Assembly (NCBI GenBank): GCA_017676125.1
Contig: GCA_017676125.1_4893.1
Length of the DNA: 52,493 nucleotides
Source: a phage
Reading direction: 5' to 3' (one strand)
Shown here: positions 1 through 52,304 of the stretch, in pieces
How positions within the stretch are numbered: position 1 is the stretch's first letter
Layout: each line of letters starts with the position of its first letter
Notes under the pieces: generated by a model
Databases searched by the model: none
What the model saw: the letters and a program-made list of their open reading frames with translations, nothing else
What the model was told of the DNA's origin: nothing
Made by a program: the position numbers and the translations under genes

Positions 1-279
1 AAAAAAACCCGTGAGGCAACAGAAGAGCTGTTGGCCACGATGCGACGCATCCAGCTGGACCCGTTGGAAGTTATGCAACGGGCTATCATACTTGCTGAAC
101 GTGAAGACGACTACAAAGCGATGATGGATGGTGCACTGGGCGTTATGCCGTACATGTATCCTAAACTGAAAGAATCCGTTGTCAAAGCAGACATCGACCA
201 GAACCTGTCTGGTAATGGTGTCAACCTGAACATTACAATAGGCGACCAGAAAGTGGTAGATACTACTGGGGAAGAGTAA
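1..279 (+). CDS. hypothetical protein, 5'-truncated at window edge; possibly terminase small subunit C-terminal part
   Basis: Frame is open from base 1 with no RBS before the first ATG at 31; lies immediately upstream of the large terminase gene. Confidence 0.3.
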   Translation, partial: KKTREATEELLATMRRIQLDPLEVMQRAIILAEREDDYKAMMDGALGVMPYMYPKLKESVVKADIDQNLSGNGVNLNITIGDQKVVDTTGEE

Positions 280-282
280 TAA

Positions 283-1731
283 ATGAATCTTGACTTTCAC
301 CTGCATGACAGACAAGGTGCCGCTCTGCGGTCTCAGGCAACTGAGATTCTGTACGGTGGTGCTGCTGGTGGTGGTAAGTCTCACCTTATGCGTGTAATGT
401 CAATTATCATGTGCTGCATGATACCTGACTTGCAGATTTACCTTTTCCGCCGAAACTATAACGACCTTACGGCTAACCACATGGTTGGTCCCACAAGTTA
501 TCCTGCCTTGCTGGACGGTATGTGCAAAGCTGGCAAGTGCAAGATTAACTACTCGAGCAACACGATTAAATTCTGGAACGGTGCGAACATCAAACTCTGT
601 CACCTCCAGTACGAAAAAGATATTTATACCTATCAGGGTGCGGAGATTCACGTTCTGCTGATGGATGAGCTTACTCACTTCACAGAAACGATGTACCGCT
701 TCTTGCGTAACCGTGTCCGACTCGGTGCTCTCAAAGTCCCTGAGAACTTTTTCCGGCCACTGCCACTCATCTTTTGTGGGTCAAACCCCGGTGGTGTTGG
801 TCATAACTGGGTTAAACGCACTTTCGTAACTGCTGCTCCTCCGATGAAAATCGTTAAGCAGGAAAAACGCGAAGGCGGTATGGCGCGTCAGTACATTCCG
901 GCTAAGATGACTGATAACCCTACGCTGATGGAAAACGACCCTGACTACGGTGACCGTCTTGAAGGTCTTGGTGACCCGGCTCTTGTTGCTGCGATGAAAG
1001 AGGGTGACTGGGATATTGTTGCTGGTGGTGCGCTTGACGACGTATGGTCAACCAAGTGTATTCTGCCGCGTATGCGTATTCCGAAAGGCTGGACTATCGA
1101 ACGTTCTCTTGACTGGGGTTCTACTCACCCGTTCTCTGTTGGTATCTGGGCTATTGCAAATGGTGCCTCGCTTACAGACGACGAAGGCAATGAGTACTTT
1201 ATTCCGCGTGGTTCAATTATACGTATAGCTGAATGGTATGGGTGCTCTGAAAAAGAAGCTAACAGGGGTATTAAATTATCTGCTGCCGAAGTCGCTCAAG
1301 GCATTATTCGTCTACAGGAAAATCTGCAGGCTGGTGGCTGGATTCAAAGCAACGTTAATCCTGGTCCGGCAGATAGTCAGATTTATGCGTGCAAGGAAAA
1401 AGACGTCGAGACTATCGCGAAGAAAATGGAAGACGAAGGCGTAACCTGGGTCAAGGCCGACAAGTCGCAAGGTTCGAGAATAAATGGCTTAGAGCTATTC
1501 CGTCAGCTTCTGAAAAATGTTAAGATGGACGAAACGGAAAAGCCGGGCATTTATTTCATGGAAAACTGTCCAGCAGCCATAAACACGTTGCCGGTTCTGC
1601 CGCGTGACAAGAACAACACGGAAGATGTCGACACGAACTCTGAAGACCACGTATACGATGATTGTCGTTACATGGTGTTGCGTGGCATCAACCGTTATAC
1701 TACCAAGCTCAAAATAAATATGGGACGGTAA
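283..1731 (+). CDS. terL: terminase large subunit
   Basis: 482 aa; Walker A-like ILYGGAAGGGKSHLM near N-terminus, acidic nuclease-like C-terminal half; followed directly by portal-sized gene. Confidence 0.85.
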   Translation: MNLDFHLHDRQGAALRSQATEILYGGAAGGGKSHLMRVMSIIMCCMIPDLQIYLFRRNYNDLTANHMVGPTSYPALLDGMCKAGKCKINYSSNTIKFWNGANIKLCHLQYEKDIYTYQGAEIHVLLMDELTHFTETMYRFLRNRVRLGALKVPENFFRPLPLIFCGSNPGGVGHNWVKRTFVTAAPPMKIVKQEKREGGMARQYIPAKMTDNPTLMENDPDYGDRLEGLGDPALVAAMKEGDWDIVAGGALDDVWSTKCILPRMRIPKGWTIERSLDWGSTHPFSVGIWAIANGASLTDDEGNEYFIPRGSIIRIAEWYGCSEKEANRGIKLSAAEVAQGIIRLQENLQAGGWIQSNVNPGPADSQIYACKEKDVETIAKKMEDEGVTWVKADKSQGSRINGLELFRQLLKNVKMDETEKPGIYFMENCPAAINTLPVLPRDKNNTEDVDTNSEDHVYDDCRYMVLRGINRYTTKLKINMGR

Positions 1732-1732
1732 A

Positions 1733-3295
1733 ATGTCGATAACCCCAAGCAGCACGCCGAACGTCGGATACCAGCGTCCTGAGCTGACTAAGAACGCTGG
1801 TAAGTACCGAATGATTAAGGACTGCATCGAGGGTCAGGAAGCTGTTAAAGCACGCGGTGATTTCTACTTGCCCCGTCCTGACCCTACGAACTGCACAGAA
1901 GAAAACATGATGCGGTACAATTCGTACTTGCGTCGCGCTGTGTTCTACAACGTACTGCAGCGAACTCTTTCGGGTATGACTGGCCTGGTATTCCAGCAGC
2001 AGCCTGAGATGCTGATGCCTGACGATATGGAAGTGCTGAAAGTAAATATCGACGGTGCAGGCATTGGTGCTATTCAGCAAATGCGTAAGTGCTTCAAGTC
2101 TGTTCTGGCTTTTGGTCGCGCAGGCCTGCTGACTGACTTCCCTAAAGCACGTATCGGTGAGTTTGGCGAGTCCATTGGCTTTACACGTAAAGAGCTGATG
2201 GACGGAGACGTACAGCCGACCGTAACGCTGTATATGCCATGGCAGATTATAAACTGGCGTGAAGAGTATCGCAACGGTAAAGTGATGCTCACTCAGGTTG
2301 TCATTTGCGAACAGATACCGGGGGTTACTGATGGCTTTCAGCAAGACTACACACCCGTGTGGCGTCACCTTTACCTGGATGAAGAAGGCAATTGCAACCA
2401 GTCTTTGTGGGTCAATAAGGGCGACAAGAATGCGCAGAACGTCTCCGGTGGCGCGTTGTATGTCACGCAAGAAAATGTTGTCTTACGCGACTCCAACGGC
2501 TTACCGCTGAAGTTTATTCCGTTCCAGTTTATTGGTTCTGAAACAAACAGCGCTGAGATTGACCCTCCGCCGATGTACGACTTAGCTGTGCTTAATATTG
2601 CACACTACCGTAACTCTGCTGACTACGAAGAGTCATGCTTCGTAACAGGTCAACCCACAGTATGGGCGTCTGGTCTTACTGAGGCATGGGTTGAAGATGT
2701 TCTGAAGGGTGAATTGCGACTCGGTTCGTTTGGTGGTATTCCGCTGCCGGCTAACGCCGCTGTAGGTATTATCCAGACCAACCCTAACACCCAGCCGTTT
2801 GAAGCGATGAAGCAAAAAGAAGCACAGATGATTGCAATCGGTGCTCGTCTGATTCGTGAGAATGGTAAGGTAGAACGACGCGAAGTTGAGATTAAGAATG
2901 AAGCGGCGTCTGAAGCTTCGCTTATCGTAACTGTTGCGCAGAACGTTGAAGCTGCTTATCGTAAGGCAATCGAATGGTGTGGCCTGTTCTACGGACACCC
3001 TAAAGAAGAAATTACGATTAACCTCAGCTACAACTTCATCTATAGCCAGTTGACTTATCAAGAACGTCAGCAGCTGGTTAACGAATGGATTGCCGGTGCT
3101 ATCACGTTTAGTGAAATGCGTAGCAATCTTAAACAAGCTGGCATTGCTAAGCTCACCGATGAAGAAGCCAAGAAGCTAATTGACGAAGAGCTGGCTGAAC
3201 GCGATGCGCGTGAGGTAGCAAAAGAAGCAGAAAAGAACGCTCAAGCAGCTAAGAACAGCGATGGGCAGGAAAATAATCCAGAAAAAACTGAATAA
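1733..3295 (+). CDS. portal protein
   Basis: 520 aa ORF immediately downstream of terL with 1-nt spacing; acidic C-terminus; canonical terminase-portal order. Confidence 0.7.
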   Translation: MSITPSSTPNVGYQRPELTKNAGKYRMIKDCIEGQEAVKARGDFYLPRPDPTNCTEENMMRYNSYLRRAVFYNVLQRTLSGMTGLVFQQQPEMLMPDDMEVLKVNIDGAGIGAIQQMRKCFKSVLAFGRAGLLTDFPKARIGEFGESIGFTRKELMDGDVQPTVTLYMPWQIINWREEYRNGKVMLTQVVICEQIPGVTDGFQQDYTPVWRHLYLDEEGNCNQSLWVNKGDKNAQNVSGGALYVTQENVVLRDSNGLPLKFIPFQFIGSETNSAEIDPPPMYDLAVLNIAHYRNSADYEESCFVTGQPTVWASGLTEAWVEDVLKGELRLGSFGGIPLPANAAVGIIQTNPNTQPFEAMKQKEAQMIAIGARLIRENGKVERREVEIKNEAASEASLIVTVAQNVEAAYRKAIEWCGLFYGHPKEEITINLSYNFIYSQLTYQERQQLVNEWIAGAITFSEMRSNLKQAGIAKLTDEEAKKLIDEELAERDAREVAKEAEKNAQAAKNSDGQENNPEKTE

Positions 3296-3300
3296 AGCTA

Positions 3301-3329
3301 TTTACTTTCGGTTTACCTGGCTATATAAT
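3301..3329 (+). promoter_or_regulatory. sigma70-like promoter TTTACT-N17-TATAAT upstream of scaffold/capsid genes
   Basis: -35 TTTACT at 3301-3306, 17-nt spacer, -10 TATAAT at 3324-3329. Confidence 0.55.
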
Positions 3330-3472
3330 CCTTCATGTCAACCGCGCAACAGCCGGCCACGAGAGTCTGCAGGGCTCAGTGGATTTCGGATGGCTGGCTG
3401 CGCGGTTTGACCCAAACCTGTTCGGAGCCCACTTGAGTGGATTGAGCCCCTCTCATATAGGATTGTAAAATT

Positions 3473-4186
3473 ATGGCACTTAAAACAGTTGTAACTGACC
3501 TTAACGAAGTTGATGAAGGCTTCCGTGGCCTGTATATCAAAGACGACGCGTCCGGTGCGTTTCGTTTGGATGTTGAACCAGACGAAAAAACGCTGAAAGA
3601 ATTAGAAGACCTGCGCAAAGAAAAACAGCGTATGGAGCAGCACACCAAAAAACTTCTCGAAGAGAAGAAAAAAGAAGCTGAACGTGCTCGCCTCGCTGAA
3701 GAAGAACGCGCACGTCGTGAGCGTGATGTTGAATCTCTTGAGCGTTCAATCAAAGAGAAGCATCAGGCTGAACTTGAACAGTATACCAGTCGTCAGGCAC
3801 AGCTGCAAGCACAGCTGGAAGCGCAGATGGTTGATAACATCGCGTTGAACCTGGCTAACCAACTCTCTGACACCCCGGCATTAATTATGCCACACATCAA
3901 GGCCCGACTGCGCGCTCAGGAAATTGATGGTAAGTGGCGTACTATCGTCGTGGATGTTATGGGTAACCCGACTGCTACAACGCCAGATGAGCTAGTGGAG
4001 CATATGCGCGCTGATAAGCAGTTTGCACCTCTTGTGCGTGGAACCAAGGCTGGCGGTGGCGGTGCCAACGGCGGCGGAGCTAATCCTGGTGGGAACGGCG
4101 GTGGCGAACAGCACACTTTCGGGGGCGGGGATGACCGCATAGCACGTGCTCGTGCTAAAATCCAAAACACACAATGGGGCAAATAA
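3473..4186 (+). CDS. scaffolding protein
   Basis: 237 aa, highly charged coiled-coil-like K/E/R-rich region, Gly-rich C-terminal tail; located between portal and major capsid gene. Confidence 0.6.
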   Translation: MALKTVVTDLNEVDEGFRGLYIKDDASGAFRLDVEPDEKTLKELEDLRKEKQRMEQHTKKLLEEKKKEAERARLAEEERARRERDVESLERSIKEKHQAELEQYTSRQAQLQAQLEAQMVDNIALNLANQLSDTPALIMPHIKARLRAQEIDGKWRTIVVDVMGNPTATTPDELVEHMRADKQFAPLVRGTKAGGGGANGGGANPGGNGGGEQHTFGGGDDRIARARAKIQNTQWGK

Positions 4187-44864: not shown

Positions 44865-45033
44865 GCTTATTTTACAAACTGATTAATATTTAAACTATAA
44901 TTAAATATATGGACCCTAAGAGTATGATTTTATTACTCTTTTACAAATCATAATATATGGGCTCCCTATAAAAAGATTAAGGGGGTAATAAGGGGATCCA
45001 AGTACCGGATAAAAGGGGGTATATATTTATTTT

Positions 45034-45053
45034 ATTATTATTATTATTATTAT
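45034..45053. repeat. (ATT)n microsatellite in AT-rich intergenic region
   Basis: ATTATTATTATTATTATTAT run, about six to seven units. Confidence 0.8.
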
Positions 45054-45210
45054 ATATTATTAATTATATTAGAAGTAATAAAAACAGCTACTTAGAGGCG
45101 TCTATATGTATGATCCGGTTTATCTCTTTATTAATATCAGAACCGGATGAAAAAAATTTACGCTGGCGAAAAAAATAAAAAAGCCGGATTGATAAATAAA
45201 TCTGTAGACG

Positions 45211-45239
45211 TTTACACTATAAAAAAGATGTGTTACAAT
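45211..45239 (+). promoter_or_regulatory. sigma70-like promoter TTTACA-N17-TACAAT
   Basis: -35 TTTACA 45211-45216, -10 TACAAT 45234-45239, upstream of resolvase-like gene. Confidence 0.5.
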
Positions 45240-45293
45240 ATTTATCAATGTTGCTGGTTACCAAATCTTTGGATTATATACGAGGCTGAATAA

Positions 45294-45725
45294 ATGGTAA
45301 ATATTAGAGCGAAGGGGCAGAACTTTGAGCGTAAAATGGCTAAGAAGTTCAATAGCTCGTTCGGATTAACTGTTGAGCGCAATCTTCAACAGTCTATTAA
45401 TGGCGGGGATGACTTGCTTGGTGTACCGTTTTTCAGCGTTGAACTGAAGAAGCACAATACCAAGTCTATCGGAACATGGTGGAGACAGTGTGCGGCATCG
45501 GCAAAGGCTCAGAACAAGATGCCGGTACTGATATACGAACTACCAAGAAAACAGCCTACCGTGGTGATGAATAAAGCTGATGTGATTGACTGTTTTCCAA
45601 GTGGCACGACTTTTAACGAGGCATCGAATCGCCTCTTTGTGGGTCTAGTAGAATTAACATGGGAACAATTTTGCCGGGTCTACAACTATTACGTTGCGCC
45701 CGGCACTCAATATCACGTCAATTAA
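45294..45725 (+). CDS. Holliday junction resolvase-like PD-(D/E)XK endonuclease (Hjc-like, putative)
   Basis: 143 aa; N-terminal KGQNFERK...GGDDLLGV...FSVELKK pattern (G.xFER, D, ExK) resembles archaeal-type Hjc resolvases. Confidence 0.45.
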   Translation: MVNIRAKGQNFERKMAKKFNSSFGLTVERNLQQSINGGDDLLGVPFFSVELKKHNTKSIGTWWRQCAASAKAQNKMPVLIYELPRKQPTVVMNKADVIDCFPSGTTFNEASNRLFVGLVELTWEQFCRVYNYYVAPGTQYHVN

Positions 45726-45907
45726 TCTTGTTTCAGCTCGTCACAAATGACACGCTGATTTTTGGCAGGGATAATACCAAGATTTAGCAGGGTGTATGGA
45801 CTATCAGCGACGCATTGTTCAACGGTAGTCCATTCAGGTTTGGATTCAACAATTTCGTAACTACAATCATGAGTAGCCACACATGTTGCCAGGATTAAGC
45901 CAATCAC
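45722..45907 (-). CDS. hypothetical small protein, hydrophobic N-terminus
   Basis: 61 aa ORF, GTG start overlapping upstream stop (GTGA); convergent with resolvase gene. Confidence 0.4.
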   Translation of the reverse strand: MIGLILATCVATHDCSYEIVESKPEWTTVEQCVADSPYTLLNLGIIPAKNQRVICDELKQD

Positions 45908-46083
45908 AAGTAATCACCTTCAACCAGGAACTCAAACAGCTGGTTGTAAACGTTGCAACCTTTAGCGAAAGAGCTTTCAGCAGGTTTACCGTCGCGGACA
46001 ATCATCATGTACTCACCGCCATGGATGTCCACCCAGTATTGCATGCCACCTTTGACCGGGTTACGTTGTAAGAATTTAAACAT
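45904..46083 (-). CDS. hypothetical small protein (59 aa, below ORF-track cutoff)
   Basis: ATG at 46083 overlaps stop of upstream gene (TAATG); translated by eye. Confidence 0.35.
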   Translation of the reverse strand: MFKFLQRNPVKGGMQYWVDIHGGEYMMIVRDGKPAESSFAKGCNVYNQLFEFLVEGDYL

Positions 46084-46328
46084 TATTTGCTCCTTATTCC
46101 AAGTTTATTCAATAACCAAATTGTCATGTCAACCCATGTTAACGGTACAGTTTTCGGGGGTTGATAATTCCAGCAGCTTGCAGTTCTTTGTATTTCTGCT
46201 TGGCGCCGCTCCGCTTCGCGTAATACCGCATCGTCAGAAGTGCCGGCAGAAAAAAGATCGGTAACACCAGATAAATCGCGTTGATTAACACGTCGAGCAA
46301 TGTCATATAAGTCATCCTTAGAAAACAT
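46083..46328 (-). CDS. hypothetical protein
   Basis: 81 aa ORF in coupled minus-strand chain. Confidence 0.45.
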   Translation of the reverse strand: MFSKDDLYDIARRVNQRDLSGVTDLFSAGTSDDAVLREAERRQAEIQRTASCWNYQPPKTVPLTWVDMTIWLLNKLGIRSK

Positions 46329-46534
46329 AAGCCAATACCATAAGAATTATCATAAAGACCACAACCAGCTTCCTCATTGCCCGACCTTCAGCATATGCAG
46401 GATTCACAACAGAATACTCAACAACATGTTTACAGCGGACCATAAGGCCTCCACTTGTGGGTTAATTCAATCATGAGGACTTTCATCAAATCCTCATTGT
46501 TGAATCAATCACCAGCGTCAGGACTTGACTAATA

Positions 46535-46738
46535 TCACTCTATCATTACCTGAACTACTATTATACACTCTTTATTGAAGCGAGTAAACACTTTTCCACC
46601 ATTAGTGCGTTTAGCCCCAGATTTTAGAGCTGACTGGCACCAGATATGCCACTCCTCAACTGTCAAGAATTTTTGCTCAGCTTTGGGTGGCAATCCATGG
46701 GCAAGGTCTACCGTCGTAAATTTGACTAGTGGCATCAC
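46535..46738 (-). CDS. hypothetical protein
   Basis: 67 aa ORF; start overlaps upstream stop. Confidence 0.45.
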   Translation of the reverse strand: MMPLVKFTTVDLAHGLPPKAEQKFLTVEEWHIWCQSALKSGAKRTNGGKVFTRFNKECIIVVQVMIE

Positions 46739-47124
46739 TTGACCTCAAATTTTGACTCGTCGTATTCCGGATCAGTCACGTCCCGGGTCGCACAATTTTT
46801 GATTGCTTCCCAGTAACGTTGGGCATCATCGCCATCGGCATAAACCGTCCAGTAGCCGTAACCACCTTCAAATCTGTCCCAGGCTTGTTCCCAGACTTTG
46901 CCATCTTCCAGCTTGTACCAAGTTGGACGACTGTCAAACTCACGAATTGGATGGTACCCCAACAAGGGATTCATCAGGTCAATAATGTCTTCCCGACTAA
47001 TCTCCTGGTTCTCCCACAACACCGTCATGAATTGCTCAAACTTGAAGGCGTTTGGCAGAACTTTGAGTACTTTACCGTCACAATATACGGTATAGGTACC
47101 ATCTTCGCATTTTGCACTGTACAT
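46735..47124 (-). CDS. hypothetical acidic Trp/Tyr-rich protein
   Basis: 129 aa ORF preceded by conserved leader GAAATTATTCACAATCAACAGGAGAGAGAAAC. Confidence 0.5.
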   Translation of the reverse strand: MYSAKCEDGTYTVYCDGKVLKVLPNAFKFEQFMTVLWENQEISREDIIDLMNPLLGYHPIREFDSRPTWYKLEDGKVWEQAWDRFEGGYGYWTVYADGDDAQRYWEAIKNCATRDVTDPEYDESKFEVK

Positions 47125-47197
47125 GTTTCTCTCTCCTGTTGATTGTGAATAATTTCAAAAATGAACTATCACAACTTTGGACAGTTCATTGTTGAAA

Positions 47198-47371
47198 CTA
47201 TGCTAACTTTGTTGCGATCTGAATTGTCAGCCGGAAATCTTCCATCAAGTTATCAAACTCTTTGGAACCACCAACAGCATCAGATATTTGATCTTTCACA
47301 ATTTGGGCATTTGATTCCAGTAATTCAATCAGGTGCGCCAATTCGTCTTCAGTCAATTTCAGATCTTTCAT
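47198..47371 (-). CDS. hypothetical small acidic protein
   Basis: ATG at 47371 overlaps upstream stop (ATGA); 57 aa, acidic helical. Confidence 0.45.
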   Translation of the reverse strand: MKDLKLTEDELAHLIELLESNAQIVKDQISDAVGGSKEFDNLMEDFRLTIQIATKLA

Positions 47372-47625
47372 AATGCATCCACCCAAGCCATAACTTTTGC
47401 CAGTCTTACAACGTCTTCATGGTCCCGCTCGCCATCAGAAAATTCGCTGGCGATGATACCCATAATTGACGCCAGATTCATGTTGATGATGTATGCGTGT
47501 TGGCGCACTTCATCAATTCCTGAATCTATCACCAGTTCCGCAAATTCTTGTGAACCTTCATCCCACTCAGCCCAATACTGCTCAGCATAAAAGTCCAGTT
47601 CTTTTTTCATCTCAATGTCAGTCAT
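47368..47625 (-). CDS. hypothetical small acidic protein
   Basis: 85 aa, strongly net-negative (many D/E). Confidence 0.5.
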   Translation of the reverse strand: MTDIEMKKELDFYAEQYWAEWDEGSQEFAELVIDSGIDEVRQHAYIINMNLASIMGIIASEFSDGERDHEDVVRLAKVMAWVDAL

Positions 47626-47630
47626 TTTGA

Positions 47631-47789
47631 TTACTCCTCAGAACCTGAAAATTTGTCGTCAATGGCTTCAACAATATAATCAAGAGTTGAAGTGTGAGAA
47701 CTATCAGAAAAAGTGCCCATCTTCTCTAACTCAATCATCATATCACGCAAGGCCATCGCCTGGTCTTTGGTCAGTTTGATTTTAAGCAT
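47631..47789 (-). CDS. hypothetical small acidic protein
   Basis: ATG at 47789 preceded by conserved leader (second copy); 52 aa. Confidence 0.45.
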   Translation of the reverse strand: MLKIKLTKDQAMALRDMMIELEKMGTFSDSSHTSTLDYIVEAIDDKFSGSEE

Positions 47790-47853
47790 GTTTCTCTCCT
47801 GTTGATTGCGAATAACTTTCATTGATGGCACTACTTGAGCGCCATCTCAAAAA

Positions 47854-48423
47854 TTACTCTTTAGTTTCTTGTGCTTCAGTTTCAGGTTTTACTTCAGTAT
47901 CAGGTTTTTTGCCAGTTACTGATTTGCCTTCGGTCACTTTACCAGATTTTACATCATTACGGTAGTATGACATATATGACTGGATAACACGTTTTGCCTT
48001 AATATCATCCGCTTCCATTCCGCAAGCTTTCATCGCATCAGCGAGCGCCAATTTGGAATCTTCCTTATCCATCAGGTTGTAATCTTTGAACACCAGATAG
48101 CAGGTATCTTTAGTTGACGGACCAGATGACGATTTGCGAGAGCCACCAGCGGATGCTCGTGTTGTCGCAACTTTGACTTCTTCAACTTCCAGTTGGTTCA
48201 GCTCGTCAAACAAAGCCTTCACCAGCACTTCTTTGGAGTCTTTGACGCTTACAGTACTTTCATCATTAAGCGACTTAATCATCTTAATGATCTGGTTGTT
48301 GGCAAAGTACTGAAGACTATCCATCTGCACTACAATAGTGCCAAGACTTTCAGTAGTCAGACCAGATTTCACAGACTCGACAGAAAAAGCGGAAGTCAGG
48401 TAAACGTAGTTGATAGTTGTCAT
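47854..48423 (-). CDS. hypothetical protein
   Basis: ATG at 48423 with GAGGA RBS (track ORF extends to 48492); 189 aa, Lys/Glu-rich C-terminus. Confidence 0.5.
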   Translation of the reverse strand: MTTINYVYLTSAFSVESVKSGLTTESLGTIVVQMDSLQYFANNQIIKMIKSLNDESTVSVKDSKEVLVKALFDELNQLEVEEVKVATTRASAGGSRKSSSGPSTKDTCYLVFKDYNLMDKEDSKLALADAMKACGMEADDIKAKRVIQSYMSYYRNDVKSGKVTEGKSVTGKKPDTEVKPETEAQETKE

Positions 48424-48518
48424 TTGATGTATCCTCGTTGATAGAATTTTTGATATGTGCCAATCCTTGGCAAGTAAGTCCAAACATGACAACTTTTGTC
48501 AAGTTGTCATGATTGAAA

Positions 48519-48821
48519 TCACTTCGCGCTTGCGTTTTCAACGGCTTGTACAACTTTCAACAAATGCCTGAAGTCATCATGATAAATTTCATTAAAGCCA
48601 TCTGCCGCAAAGTTTTCGCCAATTAAGATCAGTCTTTCGCGGACCAAGTCAATCAATAGTTTATTGTCAGTTATTTCCGCACCTGTAACAAGTTCAACAA
48701 ATAATTGCTGTACGTTATCATAACGGATGTTGCTTTCAATACACACTTGGCGCATGTCTTCAACTATTGACATGATTGTGACTTGCATTTCTACGTCAGA
48801 AGTGATGCTATTCAGTTTCAT
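48519..48821 (-). CDS. hypothetical acidic protein, first gene of leftward early operon
   Basis: 100 aa ORF adjacent to divergent control region. Confidence 0.5.
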   Translation of the reverse strand: MKLNSITSDVEMQVTIMSIVEDMRQVCIESNIRYDNVQQLFVELVTGAEITDNKLLIDLVRERLILIGENFAADGFNEIYHDDFRHLLKVVQAVENASAK

Positions 48822-49194
48822 AATAGTTACCTTTGTACTAGTTTCCAGGTGTGACTACTGTTACCAATAGTCACTAGTTGAAACTACTACTTGTGTTACT
48901 ATCAACAAGAAACATGTTACCAAATTGTTAAAGAGCAAAAGGTACCATTGACATCTACCAGATGTACCTGTTGACTGGTTAAGTACTACCTACCTAATCT
49001 AAACCATACCAATATCCTTTAGACCAGTTAGACTGGTCAATCAGTCATCACATTCAATAAATATATAATAGACCAATCGCTATTGATTGTACATAAAAGA
49101 ATTGCAAGTTTATGCAAGTTTTTAGAAATGATAATCACTTGCGATTGAGAGTGGTTCTCATATGCAATTGATATAGTTTCACATGTAATTATTC

Positions 49195-49440
49195 AATCCA
49201 AAATGGTCGGCAGGGGTTATAATAACATAGGGGTGCCACTTAAAGGAGCCGGCGAAATTATTTCTAAAAATATAATTTCAATCTGAATTATAGACGCTTT
49301 GTACTATACCGGCCGAAGTAGTTCACACGGTAATTGTACCAATCATAATAGTTACCAGAGTAATCATTTCAATTGAAATAGGTGCGGCGGGGGGGTAATT
49401 TCGCAGGGGTGCTACCTGCCAGGAGCCAGCAAAATTTTTT
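49195..49440. repeat. two ~75-bp imperfect direct repeats in divergent control region
   Basis: 49195-49270 and 49365-49440 share TCAAT..AAA.GG.GGC.GGGG.TAAT...AGGGGTGC.AC.T...AGGAGCC.GC.AAATT.TTT skeleton. Confidence 0.6.
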
Positions 49441-49669
49441 ATTTTTTCTCTATTTTCTCCTTATCAGGACCAATCATCATCAGATTGATACAACAGGAGC
49501 TAACCTTTTGCTTAACACAATAATAAGTGAAGCCCCTCTAAAATTTTTTTATATTTTTCGGAAATTGTGTAGACACTCACTAAAAAGTGGTGTACTTTCT
49601 CTCCTCCACGCGCTATCATTAATGTGAATCATCAAACGGCCTCACGGTCTCCTACTTGTGGGTAACATT

Positions 49670-50155
49670 ATGAAAATTGTTCAATTAGAGCCATATCCGC
49701 CTCAATTGGCTATCGTTTGCAGCGAAAAAGAGCACGAAGAGCTCCAAAAACTGATGGATTTGCCTGATTTTGGCAACTGGAATGACCGAGAAACGCGTAA
49801 TGCATCTACCTTTACATTCTCTCGCGTTAACTACCCATACCTGTTAATCGTCGTCGAGCTGTACCACCCGGACGACCTGAAGTACAACACCATTTCCCAC
49901 GAAGGCATTCACGTAATGTCGTCGCTGATGAACTATGTTGGCCTTAAATACGACCCAGAAAACGATGAATGGTACGCATATCAGCATGATTTCATCGTAA
50001 ATGCCATTTGTAAGGCCCATGACGAGTACCTGGAGCGCCAAAAAGCGCCAAAAACTAAGCCAAAAATTGAAACAGGTAACCATCCTGCTATACTGCCACA
50101 AGACGTTATGAACTCGCTTTTGACTGACACTACTGGGGACTTTTTAGGTGATTAA
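49670..50155 (+). CDS. hypothetical protein with HExxH motif (possible small metallopeptidase-like)
   Basis: ATG at 49670 (track ORF starts at GTG 49658); contains HEGIH; first gene of rightward operon. Confidence 0.4.
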   Translation: MKIVQLEPYPPQLAIVCSEKEHEELQKLMDLPDFGNWNDRETRNASTFTFSRVNYPYLLIVVELYHPDDLKYNTISHEGIHVMSSLMNYVGLKYDPENDEWYAYQHDFIVNAICKAHDEYLERQKAPKTKPKIETGNHPAILPQDVMNSLLTDTTGDFLGD

Positions 50156-50822
50156 TATTATCTTTGCAATGGGCCAAAATGGGGAATTCGGGTTATCTCC
50201 GGAGTTTATGAAGCATCAGGTTGACTCGTGCAAGACCATGGAAGAGGTTCGTGCACTTCCTAAATCGGGTCTACCCTGGAAATGTCAGTCAGACATGCTC
50301 TTTTTCAGGACTATGACTAATTCAATTGCGACAGAACCAGGCTATAATGCATATCAGCAACTACGTGGACAATTCCCAAATGACCAGTTGCGAAACATGA
50401 TAGCAGATGTAACGGTAAAAATGGTCGGGCATAGTGTATTGTTAGCCGGTCGTAATACGTATATGACTATGAGTCTGCCTATGTCAGCCCACAGAATACT
50501 GCTGCCGGTATCTCGCCAGATTATGGCTTCAGAAGGCTACAATAATCTGGGTGAGATGGCAGCAGACCTTGAATCCAGGGGTACTGACGTCTGGATTGTA
50601 GGTGGAGCCGAGTTGATACTTTCGGCCCTTGAAGAACACGCAAAAGACTTACTCCGTATCGACAACATGTTTATCAGTACAATCAAGCAGTCAGGTCCAA
50701 GTGATATTTTAATGGATCGTAGCAAATTAATGATGTACATTGATAGCGACTTCACTTATAATGATGAATATGTTGATAACAAACAAGTGCTGATACAACG
50801 GTACAGGAGTTTACACAAATGA
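50148..50822 (+). CDS. folA: dihydrofolate reductase-like protein
   Basis: 224 aa; N-terminal MINIIFAMGQNGEFG, LPWK..D..FFRTMT, GRNTY, VWIVGGAEL segments align by eye with DHFR conserved blocks, with insertions. Confidence 0.6.
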   Translation: MINIIFAMGQNGEFGLSPEFMKHQVDSCKTMEEVRALPKSGLPWKCQSDMLFFRTMTNSIATEPGYNAYQQLRGQFPNDQLRNMIADVTVKMVGHSVLLAGRNTYMTMSLPMSAHRILLPVSRQIMASEGYNNLGEMAADLESRGTDVWIVGGAELILSALEEHAKDLLRIDNMFISTIKQSGPSDILMDRSKLMMYIDSDFTYNDEYVDNKQVLIQRYRSLHK

Positions 50823-51325
50823 ACATCATAATCGAGGGGCCCGACAATGCTGGTAAATCTACACTTATTGAGTTCCTTAAATCTCGTACTGGCCGCAGCG
50901 TTATTCATAATACTGTTGATAAGGACCCCGAATCGGTCATGGCTAAACAGGCCAAAGAAAACGCGTTGGAAGGCAATTGCATTTATGACCGTAGCGCTGT
51001 TATATCTGAGTATATCTATTGCCTGGTTCTTCAACGTACGCCTGTCATCAATATTAATGTATCACATGTAGCAGATATGTGTGACAACGCCATCGTTATC
51101 TTTTGTATGCCGCCTGTTGAAAAGGTACTGGCAACTACTAAAGACGAAATGCCTGGTGTTGTGGAAAATCTTGAGGCGTTATATAATCAGTATGACAACC
51201 TCATTGACGAGCTGGTTATGATGAGTAAGCAGTTCTTCATTTACGACTGGACTGTTGAAGAAGACGGTCCTGAAGCAGCTCTCGAATATATCAATGAACG
51301 TATTAATAAGGAGTGGAATAAATGA
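50819..51325 (+). CDS. P-loop deoxynucleoside monophosphate kinase (thymidylate kinase-like)
   Basis: 168 aa; N-terminal IIIEGPDNAGKSTL P-loop typical of dTMP/dNMP kinases; clustered with DHFR-like gene. Confidence 0.6.
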   Translation: MNIIIEGPDNAGKSTLIEFLKSRTGRSVIHNTVDKDPESVMAKQAKENALEGNCIYDRSAVISEYIYCLVLQRTPVININVSHVADMCDNAIVIFCMPPVEKVLATTKDEMPGVVENLEALYNQYDNLIDELVMMSKQFFIYDWTVEEDGPEAALEYINERINKEWNK

Positions 51326-52014
51326 GCCCAGTATACAATACCTCAATCACGCTGTCAGCAACCGTAGGGGACGTCAACAAGACTGTTACTGTGGGTTCAA
51401 CTAACCCGAACCTGTCAGGCGAAGACCTGCTGCGCCTGGCCAAACGTGCTCTTGAAGATAACGAAGTGACTGGTACTGAAGGCGTCAGCATCGAAATTAA
51501 CGTCGAAGGATGTCCGCACAGCATCAGTATTGCGACCTCTGACAATGAAACTGAAAAGTTCAACGATGAGATGGAATATCGTACTGGTAAGATGTTCAGC
51601 AGTGCGCTAAACTGGTACTTGTGCAAGGCCTCTGGTTATACTGGTGCTCCTATGTCAGACCGCATGTTAGCTGATATGTCAGCACGTGAAATAGCTAAAG
51701 GCTGGGCGCATGTACAGATGCTGCAGGAGCATATCTGCAAGCTGGAAAGCTGCAATAAAGACGCGTCTGAGCTTATTACTGCCTATAAGCGACAGATTAA
51801 CGACCTGCAGCAACTGATGGGCAAACGTGCTGAAGAGTACGAGGCTGAGATTCGTAGCCTTAACGGTACAGCTGTTGCTAATAACCGTGCTTTCAGCGAA
51901 GAGCGTAAAGCGCTTATTGCCCAGCGTGACGCTGAAAAACGTCGTGCAGACGACCTGGCAGACCGTCTTAACTTTATCCGTAAGCATATGGATGCTATGG
52001 AAGGGGTAATCTGA
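51322..52014 (+). CDS. hypothetical protein
   Basis: 230 aa ORF, coupled start; C-terminal coiled-coil-like region. Confidence 0.5.
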   Translation: MSPVYNTSITLSATVGDVNKTVTVGSTNPNLSGEDLLRLAKRALEDNEVTGTEGVSIEINVEGCPHSISIATSDNETEKFNDEMEYRTGKMFSSALNWYLCKASGYTGAPMSDRMLADMSAREIAKGWAHVQMLQEHICKLESCNKDASELITAYKRQINDLQQLMGKRAEEYEAEIRSLNGTAVANNRAFSEERKALIAQRDAEKRRADDLADRLNFIRKHMDAMEGVI

Positions 52015-52304
52015 TGGACCTGTTCGATATGGTCGAACATCCTGAAGTAAACGGCTTGGCGGAAGCTAAGCCTTTTAGCTGGGATGAATTCGTAGCAGGC
52101 AAACCTGCTGTAACCCACAACGGGCAGATTGCATATTACGGAGGCCATAGCGAACATCCTATGTGCACTCACCTGTACAACGCTATCACAACCATATCCG
52201 ACGAAAACGTTATTAAGTACGGAAAAGAGGTAATGCCTTTTCTTGTAGATGAACGCGGTTACTTCGAAGGTAAATGGTTCCCGTTTCTGGTAGAAATGGC
52301 CTAA
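52014..52304 (+). CDS. hypothetical protein
   Basis: 96 aa ORF with overlapping start/stop (ATGA). Confidence 0.5.
   Translation: MDLFDMVEHPEVNGLAEAKPFSWDEFVAGKPAVTHNGQIAYYGGHSEHPMCTHLYNAITTISDENVIKYGKEVMPFLVDERGYFEGKWFPFLVEMA

Follow-up and report, generated by a model that had tools for sequence, protein, structure and literature searches.

What purpose is served by two large direct repeats in the non-coding DNA that separates two divergent operons of a myophage? The question stems from a first-pass annotation of the window (the entire 52,493-nt stretch of phage DNA analyzed here), which described a divergent control region of 830 bp with two imperfect direct repeats about 170 bp apart and offered duplicated small RNA genes, promoter/operator modules for an early-to-late switch, and regulator-binding arrays as possible explanations. 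The analysis presented here favors a different answer: the repeats, termed c1 and c2, are probably paralogous modules for terminase cleavage that lie along the right edge of a direct terminal repeat (DTR), set within a divergent early-promoter region, a reading that draws on homology to relatives with mapped ends. The features on which the argument turns are collected in Table 1, where, as in the text, a caret marks the position of a cut.

Table 1. Features of the terminal region in window coordinates, followed by the fHy-Eco03 PhageTerm peaks in the coordinates of that phage's PhageTerm table.
Feature	Position	Strand	Basis
GGGGT(A/T)A-type G boxes, 145-185 nt left of the L cut, then (TTA)15 tract	44981..45020	+	Sequence
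Left terminus site L, ACGCT^GGCGAAAAAAATAAAAAAGCCGG, predicted cut 45164^45165	45150..45190	+	Corresponds by homology to the first base of the fHy-Eco03 and Sz records; AEV23/ZCSE2 homology break
Predicted DTR, 4,263 bp	45165..49427	.	Homology to mapped relatives
Strong sigma-70-like promoter, TTTACA, 17 nt, TGnTACAAT, just inside the left genome end	45211..45239	+	Sequence; BP63 annotates a promoter at the homologous place
Leader hairpin 1 of leftward transcript, 10-bp stem, loop GUAA on minus strand	48851..48874	-	MFE -14.8 kcal/mol, z -3.4
Leader hairpin 2, AGGTAC...GTACCT (AGACAC...GTGTCT in other clades)	48940..48969	-	4/6 pairs changed on both sides
P_L, candidate leftward early-operon promoter, -35 TGTACA, 17 nt, -10 TATTAT	49065..49093	-	Hexamers kept in 14/14
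Most conserved block of the gap	49094..49184	.	58/91 columns invariant, mean majority fraction 0.90, 14 sequences
Repeat copy c1, predicted blunt cut 49250^49251, 177 bp inside the DTR	49185..49263	+	Paralogy with c2; fHy-Eco03 peaks
Spacer between c1 and c2 modules	49264..49359	+	Sequence and alignment reading
Repeat copy c2, predicted cut 49427^49428 (right DTR boundary, right virion-DNA end)	49360..49440	+	Homology; fHy-Eco03 minus-strand peak 51293; S144 restriction mapping
Partial third copy of c2 tail, GCCCCTCTAAAATTTTTTTATATTTTTCGG...TAGACA	49531..49575	+	17-nt match; conserved in relatives
P_R, candidate rightward-operon promoter, -35 TGTACT, 17 nt, -10 TATCAT	49591..49619	+	Both hexamers identical in 14/14
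fHy-Eco03 peak (L)	47595	+	tau 0.66, p 1.5e-114
fHy-Eco03 peak (c1)	51118	+	tau 0.40, p 2.1e-26
fHy-Eco03 peak (c2)	51293	-	tau 0.68, p 1e-195
fHy-Eco03 peak (c1)	51117	-	tau 0.59, p 3.9e-149

Composition and conservation of the gap

The gap measures 848 bp (48822-49669) and not 830; it is flanked by a leftward ORF (48519-48821) and a rightward ORF with its ATG at 49670. The two imperfect repeats were recovered both by alignment and by profile search, with an offset of 177 bp in place of the approximate spacing first given. In the best local alignment, c1 and c2, each of about 80 bp, are identical at 59 of 78 aligned positions (76%), and the alignment score of 28 compares with 12.1 +/- 1.5 (maximum 19) for 100 shuffles of the region. 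The profile search, for which an nhmmer model of c2 was built from other phages only, with the window sequence excluded, found c2 at E 3e-18, c1 at E 3e-11, and no third match below E = 1 in the whole 52-kb window; the repeat family therefore has two members here. The G-rich blocks reported earlier (AGGGGTGCCAC/AGGGGTGCTAC and AGGAGCCGGC/AGGAGCCAGC) are present as quoted and are followed in both repeats by the A/T runs likewise reported, and the TGCAAGTTTA tandem occupies 49103-49121 (period 10, 1.9 copies, 100% match). Copy c1 consists of a G-rich half (GTCGGCAGGGGTTATAAT...AGGGGTGCC...GGAGCC) and then GGCGAAATTATTT, and c2 of a G-rich half ending in GGAGCC and then AGCAAAATTTTTTATTTTTT; the left half common to the two, about 60 bp in length, can be written as GTCGGCAGGGGT(T/A)A ... 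(A/T)GGGGTG ... GCC. The spacer between the modules contains, in order, an A/T tract with TATAAT (49271-49276), TAGACG at +40 from the c1 cut, and three imperfect 15-bp units at 49329-49373 (GGTAATTGTACCAAT / CATAATAGTTACCAG / AGTAATCATTTCAAT).

The recurring GT(T)ACCA motifs noted at the outset are modestly enriched, but they do not constitute a single motif family. With expectations taken from genome density, the gap holds nine copies of GT(T)ACC against 2.9 expected (about three-fold) and five of GT(T)ACCA against 1.1. The copy at 48860 falls in the loop of the covarying leader hairpin 1, three copies (48941/48942, 48964) are arms of leader hairpin 2, and those at 49336 and 49351 are part of the stretch of three 15-bp units upstream of c2; some copies only are conserved in relatives.

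The window belongs to a Rosemountvirus-like myophage, with 96-98% identity to Escherichia phages swi3 and SD350 and Salmonella phage nenneke, 86-95% to other Rosemountvirus-type phages, about 77% to Loughboroughvirus (ZCSE2, S144, AEV23, SE4), and 71-75% to fHy-Eco03, vB_SE1_KM, KE25, and Erwinia phage SOI901. The gap was aligned in 14 sequences, namely the window and 13 Rosemountvirus, Loughboroughvirus, and allied phages. The first-pass annotation had suggested such an alignment as a check and had held that a lack of conservation would count against the repeats; since both c1 and c2 are kept in all 13 compared phages, that objection falls away. The cut-to-cut spacing is likewise 175-177 bp in every one of the 14 sequences, despite a second half of the spacer that is only 0.73 conserved, and the conservation of c1, its right flank, and c2 amounts to 0.85, 0.90, and 0.77, respectively. 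Outside the clade, none of the modules was found in Acinetobacter phage DMU1, its closest terminase relative (59% TerL identity).

Transcription signals and the readings built on them

The candidate promoters of the gap are well preserved and stand apart from the repeats. The -35 hexamer of P_L is invariant and its -10 hexamer reads T/CAT(A/T)AT in 14/14 sequences; this promoter lies approximately 335-360 bp from the right genome end and is oriented inward. P_R, for its part, is located beyond the DTR, and an invariant TAGACA...TAAAAAGTGG and a T-rich tract come before it; an exact-match scan of IMG/VR with the invariant 18-mer of this promoter returned only contigs that match known isolates in length, plus one chance match. 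Leader hairpin 1 of the leftward transcript shows compensatory changes in three pairs, a C-A of the plus strand corresponding to a U-G pair in the minus-strand RNA. What remains of the gap is ordinary divergent control DNA, with P_L and its structured leader and with P_R just outside the DTR.

The description of the region as a divergent control region consequently holds for P_L and P_R, but its extension to the repeats as promoter/operator modules does not, as the -35/-10 pairs kept in 14/14 sequences fall outside them. It is unlikely, then, that c1 and c2 are duplicated promoter/operator modules or regulator arrays for an early-to-late switch, even though the gap is a divergent promoter region, a -10-like TATAAT occurs inside c1 (49218-49223) and another just to its right (49271-49276), TAATTT occurs inside c2, and the TGCAAG block and the 15-bp periodic units resemble protein-binding arrays. 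Neither repeat contains a conserved -35/-10 pair at a spacing of 16-18 nt; the -10-like hexamers in and beside c1 are accompanied by no usable -35 (CCGGCG, AATCCA), and the one at 49218-49223 is lost in the clade of fHy-Eco03, SE1_KM, KE25, and SOI901. Such modules would, moreover, leave unexplained the two DNA-end positions observed experimentally in a relative at homologous nucleotides of c1 and c2, which are described below.

The suggestion that each repeat is a small structured RNA, or an intrinsic terminator with a G-rich stem and a U run, appears highly improbable. A T run does follow c2 (AAAATTTTTTATTTTTT), and a 6-bp GUCGGC/GCCGGC stem can close c1. Structure prediction and an Rfam search of each repeat, which had been put forward as a check, revealed no RNA: a permissive Rfam search of the repeats (E up to 10) gave no match, ARAGORN reported no tRNA or tmRNA, and no terminator-like site was found on the plus strand. 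Compared with shuffled sequences, c1 has MFE z-scores of +0.70 (plus strand) and +0.04 (minus strand) and c2 of +0.63 and +0.36, respectively, and RNAalifold gave nine almost invariant pairs for c1, broken in three of nine sequences and with essentially no covariation, and essentially no structure for c2. As neither an RNA-family match, nor covariation, nor a folding energy beyond that of shuffles was obtained, and as no stable hairpin followed by a U run and conserved through covariation was found, both small RNAs and terminators are unsupported, and the reading is largely refuted in silico.

A replication origin at the point of divergent transcription, to which the repeats would contribute iteron-like elements and A/T-rich unwinding tracts, is improbable as well. 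The cumulative GC skew reaches its minimum at about 48-50 kb, and A/T tracts, the TGCAAGTTTA tandem, and the 15-bp periodic units are nearby; the skew minimum, however, is not independent evidence for an origin because it coincides with the switch in gene orientation. There are only two large copies and no iteron array, the short arrays (TGCAAGTTTA in 1.9 copies and three 15-bp units) are weak, the neighboring genes include no initiator, and the exact coincidence of the repeats with DNA ends would go unexplained. An origin could nevertheless lie within the most conserved block of the gap (49094-49184), with c1 and c2 uninvolved; this block includes TGCAAGTTTA-TGCAAGTTTT, an inverted CTTGCG, and TGCAAT, and its candidate functions are an upstream element of P_L, a packaging-recognition region, or an origin.

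Predicted chromosome ends and cut sites

The predicted DTR contains a resolvase (RusA)-like gene, assigned by homology to annotated genes of fHy-Eco03 and vB_SE1_KM; the leftward operon of small early genes also lies within it, as does the greater part of the gap. Its boundaries in the window, 45164^45165 on the left and 49427^49428 inside c2 on the right, are homologous to the DTR ends of relatives that are 65-95% identical to the window in the gap. DTRs have been mapped in three relatives, fHy-Eco03 (3,699 bp), AEV23 (3,915 bp), and vB_SalM_Sz (4,263 bp), with boundaries at homologous nucleotides. The fHy-Eco03 record annotates terminal repeats at 1..3699, the right edge of which falls within the homologous gap (3101-3966), and the passages on termini in the corresponding paper give a 3,699-bp DTR from PhageTerm with confirmation by restriction digests. 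In the 57,020-bp record of vB_SalM_Sz, the two ends are exact copies of one 4,263-bp repeat; this repeat begins with GGCGAAAAAAATAAAAAAGCCGG, the same 23 bases that begin at window position 45165, and ends with ...CCTGCCAGGAGCC, the last bases of which match the window up to 49427. The window interval 45165-49427 and the Sz repeat are both of 4,263 bp and share 3,890 identical positions. In AEV23, the homologous sites are 3,915 bp apart, which is the DTR length stated from PhageTerm in the published account of its ends, and homology between AEV23 and ZCSE2 breaks exactly at the left-cut nucleotide. Lastly, restriction mapping of S144, as described in the section of its paper on genome ends, locates one physical terminus between clusters E and A, in the gap that corresponds to the one studied here.

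As these four independent lines (fHy-Eco03, Sz, AEV23, and S144) agree, the repeats are, by homology, located at a physical chromosome end. Homology to fHy-Eco03, Sz, and AEV23 provides fixed left and right ends at specific nucleotides, as expected of a DTR, and the predicted DTR length across the clade is 3.6-4.8 kb. The DTR boundary is, by this comparison, very probably marked by c2, and support extends to the view that the virion DNA would be linear and that its 4,263-bp terminal repeat would end on the right at the c2 cut. As a separate observation on AEV23, the DNA joined beyond the left cut is unrelated and includes an IS5 transposase gene, for which the annotation indicates similarity to E. 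coli.

The sequences at the cuts are related. The right boundary reads GGAGCC^AGCAAAATTTTTT (GGAGCC^AGCAAAA) in the window and AAGCCCC^GGCAAATTTTTT in fHy-Eco03, and the c1 cut reads GGAGCC^GGCGAAA and CCCC^GGCG, respectively; all three cuts fall in CC^GRCR followed by an A/T tract, with L of the window reading CT^GGCG. L is without the G-rich half of about 60 bp beside its cut, and G boxes of the GGGGT(A/T)A type are found farther to its left (Table 1). Six of the 39 occurrences of GGGGT in the genome, each of them on the plus strand, are found on the left side of one of the three cuts at a distance of at most 250 nt (0.5 expected, Poisson 1.5e-5), a pattern that was spotted post hoc.

The right half of c1 opens like the left genome end (GGCGAAA as compared with ACGCT^GGCGAAAAAAA), and an A/T tract and TAGACG at +40 occur in both. 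The proposal that this half is a clear paralogue of the left end, co-varying with it between phages, was dropped: a profile of the L right half did not detect the c1 right half, the pairwise score of 10 is at background (7.6 +/- 1.3, maximum 14), and the GGCGCAA and TAGACA shared by the two sites, which gave the appearance of co-variation, are found in fHy-Eco03 only. The only elements behind the notion that c1 might be a junction of a right end and a left end are a CC^GGCG core, an A/T tract, and TAGAC at +40, and these are too short to be significant alone.

More direct information on c1 comes from the PhageTerm table in the fHy-Eco03 supplement, a single table for a single phage, from which the four peaks of Table 1 were taken. 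The authors used the peaks at 47595 and 51293 and left the pair at 51117/51118, which is 176 bp from the right terminus of fHy-Eco03, without comment. Because 51293 is position 3699 of the record, 51117^51118 is 3523^3524 and therefore the CCCC^GGCG of c1, and the two minus-strand ends (51117 and 51293) fall at homologous nucleotides of c1 and c2. According to the theory behind PhageTerm, a tau of 0.5 is expected at a DTR terminus and approximately 1/fragment length elsewhere. Strong peaks on both strands at the c1-homologous nucleotide therefore identify c1 as a further blunt double-strand end site in fHy-Eco03; this end is blunt, two-sided, and comparable in frequency to the accepted termini, and it places cleavage at a fixed position within an element present in 14/14 sequences. 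Simple mixture models of alternative ends fail to reproduce the four tau values, c1(-) and c2(-) both being above 0.5. A minor minus-strand peak (tau 0.07) also appears in the fHy-Eco03 PhageTerm data near the partial third copy of the c2 tail.

Paralogy with c2, combined with these peaks, makes it likely that c1 is a genuine cleavage site in the window phage also. The opposing case, in which c2 alone would function as the DTR boundary, c1 would be a decaying duplicate, and the fHy-Eco03 c1 peaks would be an artefact of preparation or library construction, is improbable. It is true that the c1 peaks come from one data set, that a preparation-specific break is possible, and that the authors, in their passages on termini, described a simple DTR of 3,699 bp with which the restriction digests agreed. 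Against a decaying duplicate, however, stand the conservation of c1 (0.85) and its right flank (0.90), which exceeds that of c2 (0.77) among the 14 sequences, and the spacing fixed at 175-177 bp; against an artefact, the peaks are blunt, occur on both strands, are highly significant, and lie at the exact paralogous nucleotide. Likewise, contamination by a nuclease of the NaeI type, whose recognition site is GCCGGC, would not explain the break, as c1 of fHy-Eco03 (CCCC^GGCG) is without this site.

A proposed packaging model and its relation to known systems

If c1 and c2 are terminase cleavage modules, a packaging enzyme, presumably the terminase, would make double-strand cuts at both and thereby set the ends of the virion chromosome. 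The enzyme would recognize the G-rich boxes of the GGGGT type to the left of the cut, and cleavage would occur at CC^GRCR beside a bendable A/T tract. Since c1 in fHy-Eco03 is a blunt end on both strands with a frequency near that of the accepted termini, it probably forms right ends as c2 does and left ends as L does. With the modules 177 bp apart, the use of L, c1, and c2 would give rise to chromosomes with different terminal redundancies (L-c2, L-c1, c1-c2, and perhaps c1-c1) or would introduce an extra programmed break near each chromosome end. By analogy with T7, the inward-facing P_L would let the early operon be transcribed by host RNA polymerase during entry of the DNA from the right end. 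As for the enzyme itself, TerL is encoded at window positions 283-1731, and no terminase small subunit was identified, the small ORFs next to TerL, at 31-279 and 52014-52304, matching only families of unknown function.

A bolder extension of this model, which must be considered doubtful, is that three related cleavage sites (L, c1, and c2) on one concatemer cause more than one chromosome form to be packaged or, alternatively, that a programmed double-strand break is present in each virion at 177 bp from the end of its DNA. The forms would then be a long-DTR chromosome (L-c2, 4.26 kb), a short-DTR chromosome of T7 size (c1-c2, 177 bp), and possibly a blunt, unit-length chromosome (c1-c1), and cutting at c1, in the manner of a blunt cos site, would permit processive packaging without repeat duplication. 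Should this be true, multiple chromosome forms or a programmed break would represent a packaging strategy not described for tailed phages.

Several known systems offer partial parallels. The terminal repeats of T5 and SPO1 carry early host-takeover genes, and the repeat in the window holds an operon of small genes without known function. The likeness to these phages consists of fixed ends flanking a repeat of several kilobases, and PhageTerm classed fHy-Eco03 as 'DTR (long), T5'; the repeat of the present clade is, however, much shorter (predicted at 3.6-4.8 kb), and it possesses a duplicated module of about 80 bp at its inner boundary as well as a second blunt break 176 bp inside the repeat. 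The junction signals of T7 and T3 (short DTRs of 160-231 bp with flanking pac) appear to resemble the system described here in their sequence-specific termini, in their size, which the c1-c2 interval (175-177 bp) shares with T7-type DTRs, and in host-type promoters that point inward from a few hundred base pairs inside the end. The dominant repeat nonetheless measures 4.26 kb in place of 177 bp, no similarity to the T7 signals is seen in the sequence, and, unlike in T7, no phage RNA polymerase is reported in the portions of the clade literature that treat the subject. Phage N4, with a precise left end and several right ends, likewise has more than one right-end position and hence terminal repeats of different length, but the alternative site in this clade is a full paralogous module 176 bp away, blunt and two-sided with a plus-strand (left-type) end, in place of scattered right ends.

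Repeated terminase-binding elements and bendable A/T tracts beside the cleavage point are also familiar from the R sites of lambda cosB and from pacL/pacR of SPP1. The predicted cuts in the window are similarly adjoined by repeated elements and A/T tracts, but the ends in this clade are blunt and terminally redundant and not cohesive or headful. PhageTerm calls COS when plus- and minus-strand peaks are at most 20 bp apart; the adjacent c1 peaks (51117/51118) fall within that limit, and the dominant peaks of fHy-Eco03 define a 3.7-kb repeat. In this regard, the published passages on the Rosemountvirus vB_SenM-1 give COS by PhageTerm without coordinates, and those on other members of the clade refer variously to a long DTR and to "short direct repeat ends", statements that conflict with one another. 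Terminal repeats in the Rosemountvirus/Loughboroughvirus clade have thus already been published, whereas the termini passages of the papers on the clade in the searched library describe neither the boundary sequences, nor the duplicated module, nor the c1 break; the last two may reconcile the conflicting reports on the ends of these phages.

Rosemountviruses and Loughboroughviruses are widely isolated as biocontrol and therapy candidates for Salmonella, E. coli, and Klebsiella, and most of the deposited genomes examined are opened away from the true ends and, judged by length, are missing the terminal repeat. The boundary sequences ACGCT^GGCG... and ...GGAGCC^AGC would allow the correct genome ends to be assigned across the clade by inspection of the sequence. 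Finally, the duplicated module and the strong second blunt break inside the repeat would offer a testable handle on how terminase generates and measures long terminal repeats.

The gap between the operons

The most conserved part of the non-coding gap is the block that separates P_L, the candidate leftward promoter, from c1, the first of the two direct repeats read as terminase cleavage modules (58 of 91 columns invariant among 14 sequences, namely the window and 13 other phages). Its sequence includes TGCAAGTTTA-TGCAAGTTTT, CTTGCG in inverted form, and TGCAAT, and it may serve as an upstream regulatory region, in recognition by terminase, or as an origin.

Two hairpins lie within the leader of the leftward early operon (approximately 237 nt), and the arms of both vary in a compensatory manner across phages (GTGACTA/TAGTCAC vs. 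GTGGCTA/TAGCCAC vs. GAGACTA/TAGTCTC in hairpin 1; AGGTAC/GTACCT vs. AGACAC/GTGTCT in hairpin 2). In hairpin 1, two bases that are mismatched (C-A) when read from the plus strand can pair as U-G in minus-strand RNA, an indication of RNA structure in the leftward transcript. Stability, an RNase III site, and translational control are candidate roles for the hairpins.

Features of the gap, the left terminus, and the rightward operon (window positions)
Feature	Coordinates	Strand	Remarks
Non-coding stretch upstream of left terminus	44870-45164		
Candidate promoter	45211-45239	+	Near-consensus extended -10: TTTACA, 17 nt, TGnTACAAT
Leader hairpin 1	48851-48874	-	Compensatory base changes across phages
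Leader hairpin 2	48940-48969	-	Compensatory base changes across phages
Conserved block	49094-49184		Between P_L and c1
First gene of rightward operon	49670-50155		S144 annotation: putative Ku/Gam-like DNA-end-binding protein

Flanks of the predicted termini

The non-coding stretch upstream of the left terminus carries GGGGGTAATAAGGGGAT...AAAAGGGGGTATATA boxes, a (TTA)15 microsatellite (45027-45071), and, immediately before the left cut, an inverted repeat with an 8-bp stem (ATCCGGTT...AACCGGAT); this layout is conserved among relatives, with the microsatellite being variable. Inside the left genome end, at a distance of 46-75 nt, the candidate promoter is directed into a resolvase (RusA)-like gene, facing the leftward early operon in a convergent orientation. 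In the AEV23 record (OR810919), positions 1-1744 show DNA that carries a methyltransferase gene and an IS5 transposase gene, the latter with an annotated similarity to E. coli, joined without a gap to the left terminus of the phage. The join, at a physical end, is probably an assembly chimera.

The published PhageTerm table for fHy-Eco03 also lists two minor, nominally significant peaks, at 51453 (-; tau 0.07) and 41280 (+; tau 0.10). Measured from the cut in c2, the second direct repeat, the former maps approximately 160 nt further right, in a T-rich element upstream of the candidate rightward promoter P_R (homologous window position, about 49560).

The rightward operon

According to the fHy-Eco03 paper (PMC8145870), ScaI was the only enzyme to cut fHy-Eco03 DNA, which resisted all other restriction enzymes tested, and an unknown DNA modification was proposed by the authors. 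The rightward operon adjoining the gap (49670-52000) encodes dihydrofolate-reductase-like and thymidylate-kinase-like proteins, along with several unknowns, and its products could be involved in the suggested modification. For the first gene of this operon, a Pfam search returned no match and the PHROGs match was solely to a family of unknown function; a DNA-end-binding protein encoded beside the terminus would, if confirmed, be notable.
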